A stretch of 12,754 nt of DNA, from the IMG/VR virus record IMGVR_UViG_3300023291_000078; one strand, 5' to 3'. How positions within the stretch are numbered: the stretch's first letter is position 1; every line of letters starts with the position of its first letter. Positions 5,557-12,754 of the stretch are shown in pieces. Below the pieces are notes generated by a model, which was not told where the DNA came from, made no database searches, and worked only from the letters and a program-made list of their open reading frames with translations. The position numbers and the translations under genes are program-made. Source of the DNA: a virus.

Positions 5557-5813
5557 TATTTTTCTTGCTCCTGTTTCGTTAAGTCAGTGGTTAGTTTTTT
5601 CAGCCAAGCGGCAAATACCATTTTGTAACAACCGCCATGTGCTGTGTATTGTTGTGTATATCGCCACAAGTATTCCAAGTCATTAGGGTGTGTATCTAGC
5701 ATATAGCGTAAATACTTTCTAAGTTCCGGGCTTGGGGTTTGGGTACACTCCTTGTTACTGAAACAGTGCAAGGGAATGTCTTGTTTAGTCTGATAAGGAC
5801 TCTTTGGTTTCAT
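5556..5813 (-). CDS. 85-aa hypothetical protein (possible small Cys/His metal-binding protein)
   Basis: ATGA overlap with the upstream gene and TAATG overlap with the portal. It carries HC..x5..C and HGGC residues. It is the only positional candidate for a small terminase, but no motif supports that. Confidence 0.55.
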   Translation of the reverse strand: MKPKSPYQTKQDIPLHCFSNKECTQTPSPELRKYLRYMLDTHPNDLEYLWRYTQQYTAHGGCYKMVFAAWLKKLTTDLTKQEQEK

Positions 5814-6328
5814 TGAATTGTTTCCTTAACTTTAATCAGCTTCCCAAGTTCACGCATAACGCTAACTTCAAGCTCTACGCCTTCACTACGGTCATACACT
5901 CGATTGTAAGAGCGGTTCTTAGCTTCTGTAGCGGGTTTGGTTGACCACTTGCGTAGAGTGTTCTTGTTAGCTTCTACCCAATCCTTGAGTACAACAGATT
6001 CAATTACTGCCCAAGTGTCACCATACTCAGCAGTCCAGATACGCCAGAAGTAATAGTCTGACTCGTTGGTGTAGAAACAACCGTTACGCTTTGCACCAGT
6101 GCGAGTATTAATAGTGGTTAGTTCCAACTGTACCGAAGTCCACCCTTTTGAAGTGCCCCGCAATTGGTCTTTAACAGAGCAACTTTTAATCGTTCCGTCT
6201 TTAGCAGTAATAAACAAATCAATGTCTTTGTATTGGTCTTGCTTTACGTTGGTTAGCTTACCGTTGAACTGGCTAGCACAGATTGCCTCAGCTTTGAAGC
6301 CTTCACCGTCAAATTTAATTGCTTGCAT
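5810..6328 (-). CDS. 172-aa hypothetical protein; weak PD-(D/E)xK nuclease-like motif pattern
   Basis: Strong GGAGGG SD 6 nt upstream of the ATG. The pattern is E(13)...DIDLF...CSVKDQ...VQLEL, which resembles the E / D / (D,E,S)xK core of restriction-endonuclease-fold proteins. This is pattern-level evidence only. Confidence 0.55.
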   Translation of the reverse strand: MQAIKFDGEGFKAEAICASQFNGKLTNVKQDQYKDIDLFITAKDGTIKSCSVKDQLRGTSKGWTSVQLELTTINTRTGAKRNGCFYTNESDYYFWRIWTAEYGDTWAVIESVVLKDWVEANKNTLRKWSTKPATEAKNRSYNRVYDRSEGVELEVSVMRELGKLIKVKETIQ

Positions 6329-6404
6329 TTTTCACCCTCCAAGGGCATGATATGTAATAAGTGGGGAGTCTATCCCCTGTGGTTTTAAAAACGTTTAGAC
6401 ACGA

Positions 6405-6424
6405 CAAAACCCCCAAGAAGGAGG
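6405..6424 (-). terminator. Weak candidate intrinsic terminator downstream of the 52-aa ORF
   Basis: The minus strand reads CCTCC-TTCTT-GGGGG followed by TTTTG. That is a 5-bp stem with one G-U pair and a short T-run. Confidence 0.3.
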
Positions 6425-6564
6425 TTATTTATTCCGCGTATTGCTACAGGTCTAAATAATGTATTGGCCTTTCAGCCCTAATTGAATTCGCGGCGTAGGC
6501 ACCACACTAACCATGTCCTACACATAGACACCATACTGTGTCCCTCTCCACCACTTACACACAG

Positions 6565-6723
6565 TCACAAGACTGGTGCTCTTTCGTCTAGTGGCAGACT
6601 CATTTGTTCCAGAATCCACCACTCTACATTCTTACCTTCTTTCGCCAATGACTCTAGAAACTTGTCACTGTACTTACGTCTTACTTGCCGGAAGTTCTCG
6701 CCAGTTACTATGTCAAGTCTCAT
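6565..6723 (-). CDS. 52-aa hypothetical protein (below the ORF-track size cutoff)
   Basis: ATG at 6721-6723 (complement) with a purine-rich AAGAAAGAG about 9 nt upstream, and a TGA stop at 6565-6567. Translation: MRLDIVTGENFRQVRRKYSDKFLESLAKEGKNVEWWILEQMSLPLDERAPVL. It lies directly downstream of a near-consensus promoter. Confidence 0.55.
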   Translation of the reverse strand: MRLDIVTGENFRQVRRKYSDKFLESLAKEGKNVEWWILEQMSLPLDERAPVL

Positions 6724-6753
6724 AACACCAACTCTTTCTTGGGTTGAGCATAG

Positions 6754-6783
6754 ATTGTATCAGTTACATACACTTCCTGTCAA
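6754..6783 (-). promoter_or_regulatory. Near-consensus sigma70-type promoter (TTGACA-18 bp-TACAAT) reading into the 52-aa ORF
   Basis: On the minus strand the -35 TTGACA is the complement of 6778-6783 and the -10 TACAAT is the complement of 6754-6759. The spacer is 18 bp, and the predicted start is about 24 nt upstream of the ATG at 6723. Confidence 0.6.
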
Positions 6784-6801
6784 GTCTTTTGAAACTTTAT
6801 T

Positions 6802-7692
6802 TTAACTTTGTTGCCACCCTTGGTAATATTCAGCACCAAAGCAAGGCATGTTAATGTAATCAGGTTCCCAAACTTCTAAAGCTGGTACATGATACTCACT
6901 AATGTCTTTACCAACATTGTTTGCAAACCAAGCCTCAAACCCTACGTCAATAACTTCATGCTTCTTAGCTGGCTTGTTCCACCAGTCACCAGAAGTAAAG
7001 TTCTCTTTCTCTCCCATTGCTGAATCACAACGGTCGTCTTCATACCACTCAGCACCCTTAAACTTCTCTGTAATGTCAAACACAGGGCCAGTGTACGGCG
7101 CAGGGGGACCAACAAAGGGGATATACAGCGCGTTGTATTGGGTTTGAGGATCAACCTTGTAGTAGGTCTTGTTAGCACTAGGAATACCGCTAGCACGTCC
7201 CTTATACCCAAGCAAAGGAGCAACAAACAGCTTAATGAATCCCTTCTTACAGTCTTGTACTTGTACCCACTGATCTACTTGTTTGAGCTTGCGAGCTAGT
7301 GACTTGTCGTCAACACTCAACTTTGCACAAAGGAAAGAACGCTTACACAAAATAATGTTCTTGTATGTAATGCAATCTACAAGCTGTTTAAGGAACGCAT
7401 ACTGTGTGTTAGAAATTAAGGCTTTCTGTTTCAGAGTGCGGACACGGTAATCATTTTCTTTCTTGAACCACGTAAGGTCTGACTTTACTTTCAAACCCCG
7501 TTGGTCTGTTGTGTACTTCATAACGTCTGCAAGCTGGTCAGGGTCTGTACAATCATGCGCTGTACGCTGTGTTGCACTGTACATACGTTTGTCTTCTGCA
7601 CTCACAACAGAGCTGAATACTTCATACACCAAAGGAATGAGTTCACCTGTTTGTGTGTCTACTACGTTCTTACCTACTACTGTCATGCTCAT
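6802..7692 (-). CDS. 296-aa hypothetical protein; candidate DNA-binding / replication-initiator protein
   Basis: AAAGAGGTG SD 6 nt upstream of the ATG. The central segment (TQYAFLKQLVDCITYKNIILCKRSFLCAKLSVDDKSLARKLKQVDQWV) looks like a (winged) helix-turn-helix. The C-terminal third is Trp/Tyr-rich. It is the largest early gene in a genome with no polymerase. The function is inferred. Confidence 0.6.
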   Translation of the reverse strand: MSMTVVGKNVVDTQTGELIPLVYEVFSSVVSAEDKRMYSATQRTAHDCTDPDQLADVMKYTTDQRGLKVKSDLTWFKKENDYRVRTLKQKALISNTQYAFLKQLVDCITYKNIILCKRSFLCAKLSVDDKSLARKLKQVDQWVQVQDCKKGFIKLFVAPLLGYKGRASGIPSANKTYYKVDPQTQYNALYIPFVGPPAPYTGPVFDITEKFKGAEWYEDDRCDSAMGEKENFTSGDWWNKPAKKHEVIDVGFEAWFANNVGKDISEYHVPALEVWEPDYINMPCFGAEYYQGWQQS

Positions 7693-7807
7693 GTTTACAC
7701 CTCTTTAGGTTTGTGTTTTGACGCGGTATTTGAGAAAAGTGCGGATAAATCAGGCTACAGGCCACGGTTTATAAGGGGCGTTGTAGTTTTCTTATTATAT
7801 ATAAAGA

Positions 7808-7996
7808 TCAATGAATCGTCTTTTTACTCAGCGTGACTAGGATCAAATCAAGAAGAATAGAAGGGCTTTTGTTTTGTTGTAGTGCTAGTGAATCCAAATA
7901 CGTTAGGGCTTCTGGTGTTAAGTAGAAACGACGACGAATTAGGTTTTTGTTTTGGTGTACTTCTGGTGCGTCTTGCACCAATGTTAGTTTAGTCAT
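7808..7996 (-). CDS. Ribbon-helix-helix (Arc/CopG/MetJ-type) transcriptional regulator candidate
   Basis: 62 aa from the ATG at 7996, with a GAGG SD 6 nt upstream; the track's TTG at 8008 would add 4 aa. The layout is a basic beta-strand (RRRFYLTPE) followed by two short helices (ALTYLDSLALQQ, SPSILLDLILVTL). It is the first gene of the long minus-strand operon, next to the divergent promoter region. Confidence 0.6.
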   Translation of the reverse strand: MTKLTLVQDAPEVHQNKNLIRRRFYLTPEALTYLDSLALQQNKSPSILLDLILVTLSKKTIH

Positions 7997-8008
7997 ACAA
8001 TGCCTCAA

Positions 8009-8328
8009 GTGGTTAAATTAAAAATCATATATTTTCTTTGCTCTCTCACTGTATTATACTACTATTTTTGTTGATTTGTATATAGCAAACAGTAAATAAT
8101 AGCATATATTTGTATATAATTGTGTATATCCGACGAATGGTAGTGACAATAAGAGAATCAAGTATAAAAACTTACCTTCCTTACAACATTATACCATGTA
8201 AATACAAGTCTGTCTACAACTATTTGTGTTTTGAAAGTAAAAATAACATGAAAATAGAGCTTGCATGGTAGTGGTATCGGCGTTACACTGCTTACCATAC
8301 AGACAGCAAGCCTATAGAGGTGTTTGAA
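8009..8328. promoter_or_regulatory. AT-rich divergent promoter/operator region between the RHH gene and the plus-strand cassette
   Basis: There is a perfect minus-strand -10 TATAAT (complement of 8043-8048). A plus-strand candidate has TTGATT (8061-8066), an 18-bp spacer and AATAAT (8085-8090), and a second TATAAT lies at 8105-8110. The direct repeat ATTTGTATATA occurs at 8064-8074 and 8098-8108, with a variant ATTGTGTATAT at 8109-8119, overlapping the promoter elements. Confidence 0.5.
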
Positions 8329-8607
8329 ATGGAACATGTAGCCACAGTTAGCCAAATGCGTGCAATCCTTGACTCTACCGCTGGTAAAGTATTCAGCGTA
8401 TCGTTTGTCAAGAAAGACGGTAGCGTTCGTGACATGGTATGCAGGAACGAAGTTAGTAAGGGTACAAGCGGTGGTGTAGCTGGTCATGCACACAAAGAAG
8501 AGCTTTACACTGTGTGGGATATGCAAGCTGCTGGCTTTCGCTGTGTGAACCTTACCACTGTGAAACGTATTAAGTGTGGTGAACTCAACAAGGAGTGGTA
8601 TGTATGA
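8329..8607 (+). CDS. SH3 beta-barrel / DUF2693 (WYL_2)-like small phage protein
   Basis: 92 aa from the ATG at 8329, with an AGAGGTG SD 6 nt upstream; the track starts at GTG 8320. The pattern VFSVSFVKKDGSVRDMVCR...LYTVWDMQAAGFRCVNLTTVKRI matches my memory of the FxKKDGxxRxMxC...VWD...FRxxxLxxV signature of this family. No search was run. Confidence 0.6.
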   Translation: MEHVATVSQMRAILDSTAGKVFSVSFVKKDGSVRDMVCRNEVSKGTSGGVAGHAHKEELYTVWDMQAAGFRCVNLTTVKRIKCGELNKEWYV

Positions 8608-8747
8608 AAGCCTTTCAACTATTTGTAGAACAAGACACACCTAACAGCTACCTTGTATTGTGGTTGAATAACCCTACCATTGTGCAAGAGATACAGAGAG
8701 CGGCTAAAGAGTGGGGTAAACGTACCTTTGTTATCCCAACCCTCTAA
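8604..8747 (+). CDS. 47-aa hypothetical protein, translationally coupled to the preceding gene
   Basis: ATGA overlap at 8604-8607. Translation: MKAFQLFVEQDTPNSYLVLWLNNPTIVQEIQRAAKEWGKRTFVIPTL, with a TAA stop at 8745-8747. A terminator follows. Confidence 0.5.
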   Translation: MKAFQLFVEQDTPNSYLVLWLNNPTIVQEIQRAAKEWGKRTFVIPTL

Positions 8748-8772
8748 CACCGCCTACAAGTTGTAACACTTC

Positions 8773-8797
8773 GCCCCTTTCCCCGAGGGGCTTTTTT
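8773..8797 (+). terminator. Rho-independent terminator ending the plus-strand cassette, at the convergence point with the lysis operon
   Basis: The stem pairs GCCCC (8773-8777) with GGGGC (8787-8791) around a 9-nt loop, followed by TTTTTT (8792-8797). Confidence 0.75.
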
Positions 8798-8805
8798 ATA
8801 CCCGT

Positions 8806-9027
8806 TTATTTAAACTTCTGTAATTGAGCGTTACCCTTCCTTACTTCCAATGTGAGGCTAATGTAACATTGTGCTAGCTCTGTCTCGCTATAGTCACTCA
8901 AAGGGCACTCAGCTAGCGCCTGTACGTCATAAACTGGACATACAGACTCACTTACCATTGAAGTCTTTGAGCACCCTAGCAACAGGCTCAGACAGAGAGT
9001 TATTAACCCCGTTCTTACTACGTTCAT
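8806..9027 (-). CDS. o-spanin (outer-membrane lipoprotein spanin subunit)
   Basis: 73 aa from the ATG at 9027; the track's TTG at 9033 would add 2 aa. It has a signal sequence with a lipobox (LSLLLG-C), and the small mature part carries 3 further Cys residues. It starts inside the 3' end of the i-spanin gene in another frame. Confidence 0.8.
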   Translation of the reverse strand: MNVVRTGLITLCLSLLLGCSKTSMVSESVCPVYDVQALAECPLSDYSETELAQCYISLTLEVRKGNAQLQKFK

Positions 9028-9355: not shown

Positions 9356-9869
9356 TCGAGTGGTGTCCTGTGACTAAAGGGAGTGCCTTTGCCATTGGAG
9401 AATAAAGAAGGCTGTTCCCTCCTTTTGCTTGTGCCTTTAGAATGTTTCCTAATCCGGCATTGTATGAGGCTAGTGCTAAAGAGTGTCTATCAACTTCTGG
9501 TCTAGGCTTCTTAAACTGTGACCGTAGGTAGTTCATGTAATAAGCATGAGCTTGAATGTTGTATTGGCTAGTGTAAGCACTTGCATTAGCTGGTAAGCCT
9601 AATTCCTTCCTAACTTGACTCCAAGTATCGGGCATGAACTGACCTAGCCCCATAGCCCCTACAGGTGACGTTGCATTAGTGTTTAATCGACTCTCAGCTA
9701 CTAATTGAGCCTTAGCCCATATCCAAGGTACAGAGGGGTTATAGAAGGCGTTCCATTTGGCTATTTGACCGTCATAAATGGCATTCCTTAGAGCGTTTGC
9801 CTGTGAAGGTAAGCACACACCAAGGGTAAGCAATAGAACGCCTAGAACTACACAATAAATGCGACACAT
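9297..9869 (-). CDS. Endolysin: lytic transglycosylase (SLT family) with an N-terminal signal or signal-anchor sequence
   Basis: It carries the SLT signature AESRLNTNATSPVGAMGLGQFMPDTW (catalytic Glu in AES) and ASYNAG. The N-terminus MCRIYCVVLGVLLLTLGVCLPSQANA-L looks like a Sec signal peptide or SAR domain. Confidence 0.9.
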   Translation of the reverse strand: MCRIYCVVLGVLLLTLGVCLPSQANALRNAIYDGQIAKWNAFYNPSVPWIWAKAQLVAESRLNTNATSPVGAMGLGQFMPDTWSQVRKELGLPANASAYTSQYNIQAHAYYMNYLRSQFKKPRPEVDRHSLALASYNAGLGNILKAQAKGGNSLLYSPMAKALPLVTGHHSIETTTYVKRIWEYVEVYSK

Positions 9870-10081
9870 ATAATCAATCCAATAGCAATAGAAGTACCAA
9901 GGAAGCGTAAGCCATAATAATGACTCATAGCTTTAGGACATTGCTCGATCTTATCAAAGGCTTTCTTAAAGTCTACGTCTAGAAGTTTGTCAAATACCCT
10001 CAATAAGAGGAACTGACAGAGTAGGAATAGGCAGAATGCAACTAATCCCATACCAAGTTTAATCATAAATAGAGTAATCAT
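9848..10081 (-). CDS. Holin candidate (two transmembrane domains, pinholin-like size)
   Basis: 77 aa with TMDs at about residues 5-28 and 55-77. It is immediately upstream of the endolysin and overlaps it by 22 nt. The call is positional plus topology. Confidence 0.65.
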   Translation of the reverse strand: MITLFMIKLGMGLVAFCLFLLCQFLLLRVFDKLLDVDFKKAFDKIEQCPKAMSHYYGLRFLGTSIAIGLIICVAFIV

Positions 10082-10111
10082 ATTACATATACCTTTATTA
10101 GTTGGTTAATA

Positions 10112-10121
10112 ATTGATCAAT
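10112..10121. promoter_or_regulatory. Perfect 10-bp palindrome ATTGATCAAT, 31-40 nt upstream of the holin start
   Basis: Self-complementary by inspection and contains a GATC. It lies between ATTCTATCAAT (10125-10135) and the holin SD region. Confidence 0.35.
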
Positions 10122-10282
10122 AGTAATTCTATCAATACATTTGTGTGGTGTGAATGAGGGTAACACCTGCCAAACCCTTGTGTTACTTGGGGTAGCAAGT
10201 GTAAGTTGTCTATACAAGCTGTTGTTACGTTGGCCCGATCATAAATTTTTGCTATTGTCAAGCCCTTTTTCAATATATTTTA

Positions 10283-10432
10283 CCTATAGCTGACGAACGG
10301 TCACTAGCACAGGTCACTCACCAAGTCCAATGAATAATATCTATCAGGATACTCACACCAATAGACATAGCCTATATGTGAGCCTATAGAGAATACCTAT
10401 CACAGTACCTTAGTCCATTGTATTTACCTATA
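10283..10432 (+). repeat. Cluster of same-orientation CCTAT-core direct repeats (iteron-like)
   Basis: CCTATA occurs at 10283, 10371, 10383 and 10427, and CCTATC at 10396. Three copies are spaced 12-13 bp apart (AGCCTATATGTG / AGCCTATAGAGAAT / ACCTATCACAG). Related CTATCA copies are at 10127, 10341, 10634 and 10680. Confidence 0.55.
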
Positions 10433-10434
10433 AG

Positions 10435-10474
10435 GCTAGCTAGCACAATGTAGTGAGGAGGTCAAGCATTGACC
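10435..10474. promoter_or_regulatory. Two adjacent palindromic operator-like sites: GCTAGCTAGC and GGTCAA-GCA-TTGACC
   Basis: GCTAGCTAGC (10435-10444) is a perfect 10-bp palindrome. GGTCAAGCATTGACC (10460-10474) is a perfect 6-3-6 inverted repeat. Confidence 0.4.
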
Positions 10475-10946
10475 GACGAATGGTTACTACTAAATATATA
10501 CACTTGACATACCTAGTAGAGTGTGCATACCCCACCCCCTGCCCCTTCCTGTTCGTATAATAAAGAGAATATGTTAAATTGCTCTTACTCTCTCACTCAT
10601 ACTTTTAGTGTGTTGTCAATACATTGTATATTTCTATCAGCTTCCCTCTGTCCATAGTCTGTCTCTTCATTAGATTATTCTATCAATCTTCTGTGTCAAA
10701 TGAATATAAACAATTGGACAAGCTGGCGGATATCCTGTAAAATAATAGTTGACGCCCCTCTTAAAAGCATAGTCCCATATAAACATATGAGCTACTTGAC
10801 TTTCCTCCCCATTTAGTCTACTCACCCCTTCAAAACAGGCTACTTAATAGAGTGGCTATATCTCCCCGATATAATGTAACACCCGACAGGTCAAGGCCGC
10901 ATAGGCCGCTTCCCCTTTGTTCTTCTTGTAAGTGTTACCTAAAGAA

Positions 10947-11177
10947 TCACGGAATAATACGTGTCTCTAGTTTGCTTTTAATTATCTCAACGTCTGTTCT
11001 CAGGGTACTTAGGGTGTTATAAATATCCCCCAGAACGTCAAGCTTTGTTTCCACCTTAGTTAGTCGTGTATCAACTTCTTCTAACTTCTTGAATCTGTCC
11101 CTAACTAGCCAGCCTATGAAAGCACACATACCCACTAGTATTACACCGACAAGAAATATAACTCCTTCAAGTCCCAT
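10947..11177 (-). CDS. 76-aa membrane-anchored coiled-coil protein (function unknown)
   Basis: A strong AAGGAG SD lies 8 nt upstream of the ATG and overlaps the fibre stop codon. It has an N-terminal TMD (VIFLVGVILVGMCAFIGWLV) followed by heptad-like KKLEEVDTRLTKVETKLDVLGDIYNTLSTLRTDVEIIKSKLE. Confidence 0.7.
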   Translation of the reverse strand: MGLEGVIFLVGVILVGMCAFIGWLVRDRFKKLEEVDTRLTKVETKLDVLGDIYNTLSTLRTDVEIIKSKLETRIIP

Positions 11178-11189
11178 GTTAGTATCTCC

Positions 11190-12692
11190 TTATACTGGCA
11201 ACCAAGTACCGTCTGAAGTTTTAAACACATACATTTGACCAGCAGTAGTAGTACCTTGAATGTATGCAGTTGCACGGTTCTGGAAGTTACCCGCTGCAAT
11301 CTCACCTCTGTCTACAGTGATAAAACCAATACCACCAGCCAATGCACCAGAAGCAAAGTCAGCACTACGGAAGCAGTAACGACCAGCAGGAATACCCATA
11401 AGTGTAGAACCAGAAGCAAACAATCCACTACCAGTTGCAGTACCAGCAGCGTTAGCACAATCACCAATCCATATTGCTTCCATTGGATTCAAGTTAGGCC
11501 AGTTAGTAACAGAAACCCCTTTGTATCGGAAGGCAATAGTGGGGTGTCCAACACCAGAACTAGAAATAGGACGCCAAGTAACAGTGCTACCTGTGATAGT
11601 CCAAACATACTCATTTACTGGAGTGGTAAAGGTAGTTACAACAGCGGTTTGAGTAGTAGCATTCAGTTTCTTAACTTCTACGTTACCAGCAAGTGCAGAA
11701 AAAGGAGTACCAGAAAACGCACCAGCAGGGAACCAGTAGTTACCAATGGGTAAAGCGTTAACACCGCTCTGTGTGTTGAAAAGTGCCGCACCTTCTACAT
11801 AATCACCCTCAACATATTGACCAAAGCGGCTAAGTTGTGCAGCTTCATTAGGGTTAGCAACAGGCCAAGCTGTAATGTTAACAGCACCACTACCGGGATT
11901 ATAACCAACGCTAGGAATTGGATAACCAGCAGTAGAAGCGGGAGCACTACCCCAAGTACCATTACCAAGCAGCACAGTAGTAGCAGAAGGCGTACCAGTA
12001 CCCAAACGTGCAACAGGTACTTGACCACTTGCAATATCAGCACCTTCTAAAGTTACAACACCAGTCTTACCAGCAACAGAACGTACAGGGGCAGTTGCAG
12101 CAGTTACAAACCCAGCACCGTTAGTAAGTTGGATAGTGGTAGTTCGTATTACAGTGTTACCAGCAAGAGCTTGGTTAGCAGCAGTACCAATAATAGGAGC
12201 AAAGGTAGTTGGTTTGTCTGTTACTTCTGACCATGCTGGAACATACGAACTAGGTTTAGCTCCTACGTCAGCAGCAGCCAGGACAACAACACCAGTTTGA
12301 CCATTTACGCTATCAACTGCACCACCACCCCCACCGCCTGTTACAACAACCCAATCCCCGTTATTACGACCATAAGTTTGACTGTCTTCTGGGGCTTCTT
12401 GAATGATTACAGCGTTTTCAAGTTCAGTTACAAGGGCTTGAGCTTGAGAAGCAGAGGTAGCAGCATTCCCAGCTTGTGTAGAGGCCAAAGCTACTTGATC
12501 TTGTGCAAGGGTTACTTGTCCAGCAGCGTTAACAGCAGCAGCCTCAGCGTTAGCCTCAGCCAGTTGTGCAGCAGCTACAGATTCAGCTACGTTAGTAGTA
12601 CCTTCTGAAATAGTTGCTACGTCTTGTTCCAGTGTATTTGTTGCAGTGGTAATACGCACAATCAGCGCGTCAAAGTCAGCATTAGTAGCCAT
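11190..12692 (-). CDS. Tail fibre / receptor-binding protein
   Basis: 500 aa. It has an Ala/Gln-rich N-terminal coiled coil and a QEAPEDSQTYGRNNGDWVVV motif (the EAPxDxxxYxRxNGxW fibre signature). After a poly-Gly hinge there are two SV(N/A)G(Q/K)TGVVxLxxAD repeats, then LLGNGTWG. The C-terminal domain is tandemly duplicated. Confidence 0.9.
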   Translation of the reverse strand: MATNADFDALIVRITTATNTLEQDVATISEGTTNVAESVAAAQLAEANAEAAAVNAAGQVTLAQDQVALASTQAGNAATSASQAQALVTELENAVIIQEAPEDSQTYGRNNGDWVVVTGGGGGGAVDSVNGQTGVVVLAAADVGAKPSSYVPAWSEVTDKPTTFAPIIGTAANQALAGNTVIRTTTIQLTNGAGFVTAATAPVRSVAGKTGVVTLEGADIASGQVPVARLGTGTPSATTVLLGNGTWGSAPASTAGYPIPSVGYNPGSGAVNITAWPVANPNEAAQLSRFGQYVEGDYVEGAALFNTQSGVNALPIGNYWFPAGAFSGTPFSALAGNVEVKKLNATTQTAVVTTFTTPVNEYVWTITGSTVTWRPISSSGVGHPTIAFRYKGVSVTNWPNLNPMEAIWIGDCANAAGTATGSGLFASGSTLMGIPAGRYCFRSADFASGALAGGIGFITVDRGEIAAGNFQNRATAYIQGTTTAGQMYVFKTSDGTWLPV

Positions 12693-12754
12693 TAAGTTAA
12701 TTCCTCTATTACGATTGGGGTTAGTTCGTGAAGCTCTCTAATTACAGCTTCAAA
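12614..12754. repeat. Right copy of the 141-bp terminal overlap
   Basis: Identical to 1-141. It contains the fibre start codon (12690-12692) and the last codons of the 166-aa gene. Confidence 0.95.

Follow-up and report, generated by a model that had tools for sequence, protein, structure and literature searches.

We analyzed the gene-free block at positions 10082 to 10946 of the viral record IMGVR_UViG_3300023291_000078, a sequence of 12,754 nucleotides (nt) that is referred to here, at its full length, as the window. The block lies at the junction between the structural operon of a near-minimal tailed phage and its holin-endolysin-spanin cassette, and it is probably a region at which proteins bind DNA. 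Our preferred reading has two layers, namely, a control region common to most of the phage family and, embedded within it in some lineages, a site of the type recombined by the host proteins XerC and XerD. As a whole, this reading is tentative and falls just short of an even call. The putative Xer site is the firmer part, and we lean toward its being functional; control of lysis or late transcription is a reasonable, albeit somewhat doubtful, candidate for the main role shared across the family.

The window is a circular assembly, since positions 1 to 141 are repeated exactly at 12614 to 12754, and its unit of 12,613 bp is ~1 kb larger than the smallest genome of a tailed phage that has been isolated (11.6 kb [bioRxiv 10.1101/2025.06.18.659913]). 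Its GC content is 43%. Nearly all genes are carried on the minus strand, where the large terminase, a lambda-E-type major capsid protein, a Mu-type portal, a 500-amino-acid (aa) fiber, and a 76-aa membrane protein precede the block, and a 77-aa holin-like protein, an SLT endolysin, and two spanin-like genes follow it. Given that a genome this close to the minimum devotes 7% of its length to the block (noncoding DNA amounts to about 15% overall), the block must earn its place. Its extent and borders are as follows.

10082 to 10946, no strand assigned: gene-free block of 865 bp between the 76-aa gene and the holin-like gene, defined from open reading frame lists and the gaps of relatives
10947 to 11177, minus strand: 76-aa gene, whose stop borders the block
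9848 to 10081, minus strand: 77-aa holin-like gene, whose start borders the block

The longest ATG-initiated open reading frame (ORF) within the block is 38 codons on either strand, and all three stop codons are present in all six frames, as a first-pass annotation made from the sequence had stated. Frames with GTG or TTG starts reach 55 to 56 codons, and stop-to-stop frames do not exceed 58. When the block was scanned with 200-bp flanks under stop codon recoding, open frames of at most 82 to 123 codons were obtained for the combined stretch. The same annotation placed all other genes fewer than 80 nt apart, which proved incorrect: further gene-free gaps occur at 6329 to 6801 (473 bp), 7997 to 8319 (323 bp), and 7693 to 7807 (115 bp), and a 62-aa gene at 7808 to 7996 on the minus strand was missing from the gene map.

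Relatives were gathered through capsid, endolysin, and holin searches of viral and metagenome collections plus exact-protein look-ups, and their 28 complete copies of the gap represent 17 nonredundant lineages at 90% identity; the holin search gave 44 clusters. In all 28, the gap is in the same place, is free of ORFs, and measures 687 to 903 bp. In three distant relatives, L012, L013, and L014 (capsid identities of 70%, 67%, and 46%), the gap that follows a gene resembling that for the 76-aa protein measures 959, 847, and 1,106 bp, respectively. Gene callers predicted nothing in the gaps of relatives except for one 82-aa call in L051; the longest open frame is 68 codons in L035, whose block and that of L051 are at least 90% similar. 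Since six-frame peptides from different lineages matched one another in every frame of either strand, with switches of frame, nothing in the block appears to be coding, and a decayed gene, one of the roles first proposed, was rejected for want of a conserved reading frame in any lineage. An intact gene at this position, or loss of the region, had been named as grounds for doubting the block's function; every relative instead retains the ORF-free gap, and the block is a real, selected, noncoding element.

Overall, the block evolves faster than coding DNA. It is 66% identical to its L009 counterpart over 81% of its length, versus 73 to 82% for the genes, and just 17% of it can be aligned with the block of L010. 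It nevertheless contains islands at 86 to 93% identity, a level of conservation above that of the genes; these islands and the motifs specific to the block rule out neutrality. No close relative of the phage was found among 50,697 phage records searched by DNA and by capsid or terminase protein, and no relative was found in 185,579 bacterial species genomes in two scans with capsid and terminase profiles. PLSDB plasmids yielded only distant terminase matches of at most 29% identity. Independent contigs of relatives break in different genes, as expected of circular or permuted DNA.

The most abundant element of the block is a 21-bp repeat with the consensus AATAGnnAAATACwATTGGAC, i.e., AATAGnnAAATAC(A/T)ATTGGAC, which has an inner dyad, ATAG-N7-C(A/T)AT. 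The repeat explains the CCTAT and CTATCA cores that the first-pass annotation had noticed. As claimed there, CTATCA occurs five times in the block, on one strand only, versus twice on the same strand in the rest of the genome, and CCTATA occurs four times versus once. Each genome has 7 to 11 copies of the repeat in the block and scarcely any elsewhere. A matrix built on the window copies and iterated over eight genomes gave 60 matches inside the gaps and 15 outside them; in the window, all 11 matches fall within the block. The bare dyad, ATAG-N7-CWAT, behaves similarly, with 38 matches inside the gaps versus 5 outside, and all 6 of its matches in the window are in the block (0.66 expected). 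The copies are spaced irregularly, at 25 to 206 bp. The following copies, along with a related conserved element, were delineated in the window.

10699 to 10719, plus strand: 21-bp repeat AATGAATATAAACAATTGGAC, in the opposite orientation; its TTGGAC end overlaps the -35 box of the promoter P_anti described below
10664 to 10684, minus strand: 21-bp repeat GATAGAATAATCTAATGAAGA, from the matrix scan
10618 to 10638, minus strand: 21-bp repeat GATAGAAATATACAATGTATT, followed by a TTGACA that is present family-wide; from matrix, alignment, and dyad
10412 to 10432, minus strand: 21-bp repeat TATAGGTAAATACAATGGACT, from matrix and dyad
10381 to 10401, minus strand: 21-bp repeat GATAGGTATTCTCTATAGGCT, with a perfect ATAG-N7-CTAT dyad; from matrix and dyad
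10356 to 10376, minus strand: 21-bp repeat TATAGGCTATGTCTATTGGTG, a weaker copy with a perfect dyad; from matrix and dyad
10325 to 10345, minus strand: 21-bp repeat GATAGATATTATTCATTGGAC, the best-conserved copy of the family, with ATAG and ATTGGAC invariant in a 13-sequence alignment
10268 to 10288, minus strand: 21-bp repeat TATAGGTAAAATATATTGAAA, from the matrix scan
10232 to 10262, minus strand: conserved element GCTTGAC...ATAG-N7-TTAT...GTCGGGC, followed by CAAC; its inner stem is a copy of the dyad

Outside the family, the repeat gave 44 database matches, which were mostly single and at chance level. One contig among them, L065 (IMGVR_UViG_3300010885_065454), an unrelated GC-rich viral contig of 11 kb, has GATAGGGAAATACAATTGGACA twice in a duplicated intergenic stretch (positions 1023 to 1125); these copies may reflect a host factor that reads the 21-bp motif, or chance among the 44 matches. 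In lineage L011 alone, five tandem units of ~29 bp (TAAnCCACACAATTnTCACAA) lie directly upstream of the holin gene (8654 to 8821) and resemble classical iterons. The 21-bp repeat would define a DNA-binding specificity whose putative protein is yet to be found. A possible binder is the 62-aa protein encoded at 7808 to 7996, which is conserved across the family, L013 included, and has an invariant LIRRRFYL segment. Its predicted structure (mean pLDDT of 83) has CopG, PutA, Arc, and other ribbon-helix-helix proteins as its best structural matches, all at E values above 1, and the model thus suggests a ribbon-helix-helix-like protein.

A second shared element is a predicted promoter, P_anti, which is antisense to all neighboring genes and leads into the most conserved stretch of the block. 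It is listed here with that stretch and with a gene-sense candidate.

10715 to 10743, plus strand: P_anti, predicted sigma-70-type promoter (TGGACA, 17 nt, TAAAAT), antisense to all neighboring genes
10744 to 10795, plus strand: island A, beginning TTGACGCCCCTCTTAAAAGCATAGTCCCAT, the most conserved stretch of the block, including the first ~45 nt downstream of P_anti
10126 to 10154, minus strand: gene-sense promoter-like site (TTCACA, 17 nt, TAGAAT with TG), 45 nt before the holin start

P_anti scores 10 of 12 in a promoter scan and, when 13 sequences were aligned, 12 of them had it in one and the same column. The pattern T(G/A)GA(C/A)A, 17 nt, TA(A/T)AAT is found in 15 of the 17 lineages, with the length of the spacer fixed and its sequence varying, and it is the sole promoter-like site conserved family-wide. 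Its -35 box overlaps the reversed copy of the 21-bp repeat. Island A is 86 to 93% identical to its L009 counterpart, versus about 60 to 70% for the flanking DNA of the block, and a scan of viral contigs recovered its exact pattern from this family only. The gene-sense site at 10154 to 10126 was seen in the window alone and is missing even from the close relative L031. A further candidate, TTGACC, 17 nt, TAGCTA, was discarded, its score being due solely to the -35 box and the TG. Consensus sites for IHF, sigma-54, FleQ, extracytoplasmic sigma factors, and ArgR, compared by eye, gave no convincing fit. Close to the holin gene, a perfect palindrome with 6-bp stems, CGTGCA-nnn-TGCACG, lies about 20 to 45 nt before the start codon in L009, L032, L010, L046, and others, and in many lineages it immediately precedes the ribosome-binding site of the holin gene; its counterpart in the window is TTGATCAA. 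This palindrome could be a translational or an operator element.

The relative L003 indicates with which genes these elements travel. Its fiber is only about 30% identical to that of the window, the first ~140 bp of its block cannot be aligned, and a 296-aa early gene has been swapped for an unrelated 245-aa gene, but the stretch that starts with island A shows 88% identity to the window, and the resemblance carries on into the holin and endolysin genes. This pattern implies that the repeats follow the lysis module rather than the variable early gene. The module that travels with the repeats also holds a plus-strand WYL_2 gene, and the 21-bp repeat is present wherever this holin/endolysin/WYL_2 module is. 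Starting from the window, the repeat can be traced as far as L012, where the lysis genes are different ones and the repeat is weak or absent; it is absent from L013 and L014, which carry other repeats. The 76-aa protein on the other side of the block has an N-terminal membrane helix followed by what appears, by eye, to be a coiled coil, and its sole match is a PHROG of unknown function; if it were a lysis accessory protein, then the block would lie inside the lysis cassette and not before it.

The third shared element is a 12-mer, ACC(G/A)TTCGTC(G/A)G (ACCRTTCGTCRG; box ACCGTTCGTC), the core of which is the 9-bp AlgR consensus CCGTTCGTC. The window has three matches versus 0.10 expected, all on the gene-sense (minus) strand.

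10473 to 10484, minus strand: AlgR-type box, copy 1, ACCATTCGTCGG, 66 bp from the XerC arm described below; kept in group 1 relatives
10290 to 10301, minus strand: AlgR-type box, copy 2, ACCGTTCGTCAG, with the exact core CCGTTCGTC; retained by nearly all lineages, with a 21-bp repeat on each side
8130 to 8141, minus strand: AlgR-type box, copy 3, the only one not in the block; it lies upstream of the 62-aa gene, within the early promoter region

Copy 3 sits between promoter-like sites at 8216 to 8188 and 8082 to 8053, and the same layout is found in L009 and L031. One variant in the family, CCGTTGGTC, is identical to the footprinted mucR site. AlgR sites have been found to act at positions -470, -394, -702, or +391 relative to promoters (PMC4064291; PMC4787818), and no LytTR domain was found among the scanned phage proteins. 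If the AlgR-type boxes work, a host signaling pathway would gate both the early and the lysis functions of the phage.

The element specific to some lineages is a putative core site for XerC and XerD, recognized by sequence match, and the insert that carries it.

10550 to 10579, plus strand: putative XerC/XerD-type core, TGTTCGTATAA - TAAAGAGA - ATATGTTAAAT (11 + 8 + 11 bp)
10419 to 10613, no strand assigned: lineage-specific insert of ~195 bp, in which the Xer core and one AlgR-type box lie; the second lineage group lacks it

With three mismatches allowed, the core pattern matches the window once, versus 0.01 matches expected. The chromosomal dif site of Acinetobacter baumannii reads TGTTCGTATAA-TGTATA-TTATGTTAAAT (PMC10132070). 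The XerC arm of the phage core, TGTTCGTATAA, is identical to that of this dif site at 11 of 11 positions, and the XerD arm, ATATGTTAAAT (10569 to 10579), agrees with TTATGTTAAAT at 10 of 11, the first base being A for T. Between the two arms there is partial dyad symmetry, as is usual for Xer sites, and the 8-bp center falls in their range of 6 to 8 bp. The core occurs in 8 of the 17 lineages. Among these, the XerD arm is invariant, the XerC arm drifts (TGTTCGTAGAA, AGTACGTAGAA, AGTGCATAGAA, and AGTACGTGGAA in relatives), and the 8-bp center is variable (TAAAGAGA, TATAGATA, TAAAGATA, and TAAACAGA among carriers). This pattern agrees with that of known Xer sites, in which the XerD arm is more conserved than the XerC arm and the spacer is free (PMC10132070), and the 11 + 8 + 11 layout is that of cer (PMC5357621). 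The exact core pattern was present in 13 of 106 fetched loci, and all of those that were mapped are members of the family.

The insert was delimited by alignment columns present in at least seven of eight group 1 sequences and in no more than one of eight group 2 sequences; these columns correspond to 10419 to 10436, 10448 to 10494, 10530 to 10548, and 10587 to 10613. It extends about 130 bp on the XerC side of the core, and the accessory DNA of cer and psi, which binds PepA plus ArgR or ArcA, measures about 180 bp on that side. No ARG box or known PepA site was recognized in the insert, no homologues of it were found in plasmids, and no integrase was detected among 10 phage proteins scanned against Pfam. 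The GC content of the phage fits Acinetobacter-like hosts (0.40 in strain ADP1), and we infer an Acinetobacter-like host only from this value and the dif match.

Taken together, these elements can be arranged in two layers; the binding proteins and the roles in transcription and recombination are what we infer from the elements, their conservation, and their enrichment. The first layer, present in most of the family, would comprise the 7 to 11 repeats, one AlgR-type box between two repeats, and P_anti and would serve as a control region where the structural operon meets the lysis cassette. The timing of read-through from the structural to the lysis genes would be set jointly by antisense transcription and by proteins occupying the repeats and boxes. 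Via the box shared with the early promoter, a single regulator would govern both controls; this would probably be a response regulator of the host, of the LytTR/AlgR kind. The second layer, found in the lineage of the window and seven others, would be the insert with its cer-type core and second AlgR-type box. Host XerC and XerD would bind the core, and the sites beside it would serve as accessory sequences, a role comparable to that of ArgR and PepA at cer and of the response regulator ArcA at psi. Recombination would turn multimers of the circular phage DNA back into monomers or, less likely, place the phage in the host dif site.

A more ambitious version, which seems plausible but on balance doubtful, is that this family of ~12.6-kb tailed phages exploits host XerC and XerD through its own cer-type site, with the 21-bp repeats and response regulator boxes as the accessory array and with two-component signaling feeding into both the early promoter and the site. 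If true, this would be the first tailed phage to use the chromosome dimer resolution machinery, either to maintain a monomeric, plasmid-like circle or to enter dif. The Xer reading, if correct, would also allow predictions, for this uncultured family, of its host (Acinetobacter-like) and its lifestyle, namely, a maintained circular or dif-integrated state that needs no integrase.

Several observations weigh against the two-layer reading. No Xer core was found in 9 of the 17 lineages or in L012 to L014 when the DNA of the family was searched, and thus the core cannot explain why the block exists family-wide. The core has an 8-bp spacer, versus 6 bp in the dif and pdif sites of Acinetobacter (PMC10132070). 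No integrated or plasmid copy was found in the 185,579 species genomes (one per species, a sampling that could miss rare lysogens) or in PLSDB, and the closest cultured relatives by terminase are Pseudomonas phages, at just 32 to 33% identity. On the regulatory side, no conserved gene-sense promoter of the sigma-70 type was found upstream of the holin gene across the family, L013 has the ribbon-helix-helix-like protein but not the repeat, and the AlgR match was recognized after the fact and draws, like the Xer similarity, on consensus sequences from the literature. In addition, for a region that served transcriptional control alone in so small a genome, 700 to 1,100 bp would be a large size.

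A regulatory hub for lysis and a replication origin had both been suggested at the outset, and both are still live options for what acts at least as a DNA element. The origin, although unlikely in our estimation, is the main rival. In this explanation, the repeats would be copy control iterons that bind a phage initiator, P_anti would activate or prime replication, and the Xer core would resolve multimers, a site that plasmids often have amid their other cis-acting maintenance sites. Iteron arrays are known from P1 oriR/incA, P4 ori/crr, and the R6K gamma origin; origins of this type have multiple direct repeats of 17 to 22 bp at regular spacing, next to an AT-rich unwinding element and DnaA boxes. 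The array of 7 to 11 repeats, mostly in one orientation and with one copy over a promoter -35 box, suits such an origin, as do the additional tandem units near the holin gene of L011, the lack of comparable arrays in the other gene-free gaps, and the Xer site itself, which makes most sense on a circular replicon that needs maintenance. The distant relatives that keep the gap with other repeats are also what would be expected if the origin and its initiator coevolve. The early gene, however, is the sole candidate slot for an initiator, and it changes type while the repeats stay the same. Since the repeats do not follow this variable gene and are instead linked to the lysis module, the origin explanation is weakened, although this test of iteron-initiator covariation is valid only if the early gene encodes the initiator. 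The repeat spacing is irregular, the block has no DnaA box (the only near-consensus box close to the early genes is at 7740), and the lowest-GC stretch lies elsewhere, at 7801 to 8200. Cumulative GC skew, proposed earlier as a check for an origin, takes no turn in the block.

A considerably less probable alternative is that P_anti drives a short noncoding RNA, antisense to the end of the structural operon, with the rest of the block as its regulatory surroundings. Antisense RNAs such as sar of P22 and oop of lambda are precedents. The alternative would account for the family-wide conservation of P_anti and for the fact that the first ~45 transcribed nt are the best-conserved sequence of the block. 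A small RNA made from within a recombination site also has a precedent in Rcd, which is transcribed from inside cer (PMC5357621). Island A, however, has no conserved fold on either strand, the leader folds with a z score of only -0.77, its pairing with phage translation starts gave nothing notable, there is no terminator, and such an RNA would explain about 50 to 200 nt of the 865 bp. A G.U-rich hairpin drawn in island A was rejected, being broken by substitutions without compensation.

That the block is a pac region, with the repeats as sites for a small terminase subunit, is very improbable. Sites for protein binding typically recur in pac and cosB regions, as at P1 pac, lambda cosB, and SPP1 pac. 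The differing contig break points would fit circularly permuted, headful-packaged DNA, and no small terminase gene was identified among the scanned proteins, so its site could be anywhere. Against this, the block lies 1.9 kb from the large terminase gene and next to no candidate for the small subunit, and the lysis module, not the terminase, is what it travels with. The first-pass suggestion of a pac or cos site found no support, and fixed genome ends within the block were rejected, as the break points of independent assemblies differ and fall in different genes.

The readings of the block as RNA fared no better. No intrinsic terminator was found in 9700 to 11300 and thus none after the 76-aa gene, in agreement with the first-pass annotation, but the long structured untranslated RNA that it proposed is not supported. 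The whole window has no match at E values up to 1 in Rfam 15, the models of which include the large phage-borne RNAs GOLLD and ROOL, and a search for tRNA and tmRNA found none. The whole block folds no better than shuffled sequences do (z scores of -1.1 for the gene-sense strand and +0.4 for the opposite one), and consensus folding of three sub-blocks gave 0, 15, and 13 pairs with almost no covariation. An island B hairpin with apparent covariation was set aside, its inner stem being another copy of the palindromic dyad. Neither the local hairpin named at first nor the GTAACAC/GTGTTAC pair, which is present where it had been placed, is conserved in relatives. The remaining motifs were located largely as described: the palindrome GGATATCC is at 10728; TCAATACATT is repeated, at 10132 and 10616 (the second position had been off by one base), as is ATTCTATCAAT, at 10126 and 10677 (here, the first was off by one base); and the nine TTGAC boxes (four plus, five minus) were counted correctly but are not enriched, given 46 genome-wide. 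A stuffer that compensates for length was also rejected, since fibers of 336 to 338 aa go with blocks of 687 to 733 bp and fibers of 500 to 595 aa go with blocks of 845 to 865 bp, which is the wrong direction. A long structured RNA, a decayed gene, or neutral filler at capsid-filling length is therefore scarcely credible, even though the gene-sense strand is probably transcribed through the block and the block length is fairly constant, because there is no Rfam match, the folding z scores are -1.1 and +0.4, consensus folding yielded almost nothing, and reading frames are not conserved.

Other regions of the genome also yielded observations. The 473-bp gap at 6329 to 6801 is 83% identical to L009 over its full length and 89% identical to L003, a conservation above that of the block and of the flanking 172-aa gene. 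Of the gene-sense promoter-like sites in the genome, the best one (TTGACA, 18 nt, TACAAT with TG; 6783 to 6754) falls in this gap, along with a possible 52-aa ORF at 6565 to 6723. The gap at 7997 to 8319 is probably an early control region; it has the lowest GC content of the genome (0.32), the strong promoter-like sites at 8216 to 8188 and 8082 to 8053, and a doubled ATTTGTATATA (8074 and 8108). The only plus-strand coding unit, at 8320 to 8791, encodes a 95-aa WYL_2 (Sm-like SH3) protein; it also includes a 50-aa ORF at 8595 to 8747, which gene callers detect in relatives as well, and, at 8773 to 8791, the genome's best intrinsic terminator. The early gene slot holds unrelated proteins, namely, one of 296 aa in the window (6802 to 7692), one of 245 aa in L003 (2420 to 3157), and a 455-aa P-loop protein on the other strand in L013 (4352 to 5719), which makes it appear to be a swappable module amid fixed neighbors, possibly with a function in replication. 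The 172-aa protein (5810 to 6328, minus strand) is found in every family member and has no Pfam or PHROG match; by eye, its D...SxK pattern recalls nucleases of the restriction endonuclease fold.

Among known systems, the immI region of P22 combines Arc and Mnt operators with the sar antisense promoter inside the late operon. The block resembles it in being a control region within a late unit, in having a predicted antisense promoter, and in belonging to a phage that also encodes a ribbon-helix-helix-like protein. Unlike the block, immI contains genes (ant, arc, and mnt) and has a much smaller noncoding part, and the two share no sequence similarity. The iteron origins of P1, P4, and R6K are alike in having multiple ~20-bp repeats, mostly in one orientation, with one overlapping a promoter; the block differs from them in its irregular spacing, in having no covarying adjacent initiator gene, and in having no DnaA boxes.

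For the AlgR-type boxes, the closest parallel is the far-upstream AlgR sites of algD, algC, and rhlA in Pseudomonas, which have the identical core CCGTTCGTC in several copies located hundreds of base pairs upstream. In contrast to those sites, many copies in the phage family read CCATTCGTC or CCACTCGTC, variants not reported in PMC4064291 or PMC4787818; the host is probably not Pseudomonas, given the phage GC content of 43%, and no AlgR-dependent promoter was identified.

The attP sites of Xer-exploiting phages (CTX, VGJ, TLC, and the dif-type double-jelly-roll phages) likewise pair a dif-like site with the lack of an integrase, which here applies to the 10 scanned proteins. The known Xer-exploiting elements in the cited literature are filamentous or double-jelly-roll phages and genomic islands, with no tailed phage among them. 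The center of the phage site, TAAAGAGA, shares little with the dif center TGTATA, and whereas integrative Xer elements sit at the host dif between dif-like junctions, no integrated copy of this phage was found in the 185,579 species genomes.

The nearest likeness is to the plasmid sites cer and psi. Unlike these, the phage site lies in a tailed phage genome rather than a plasmid and is known here from its sequence, and P_anti also occurs in lineages without the core. cer contains an internal small RNA promoter (PMC5357621), whereas P_anti lies on the XerD side of the phage core and points away from it. psi of pSC101 uses the response regulator ArcA as its accessory protein, and the phage has a response-regulator-type box 66 bp from the XerC arm. 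As at cer and psi, the XerD arm is the conserved one, with the phage insert lying mostly on the XerC side, and the phage core has the same 30-bp organization as cer of ColE1, with an 11-bp XerC arm, an 8-bp center, and an 11-bp XerD arm.

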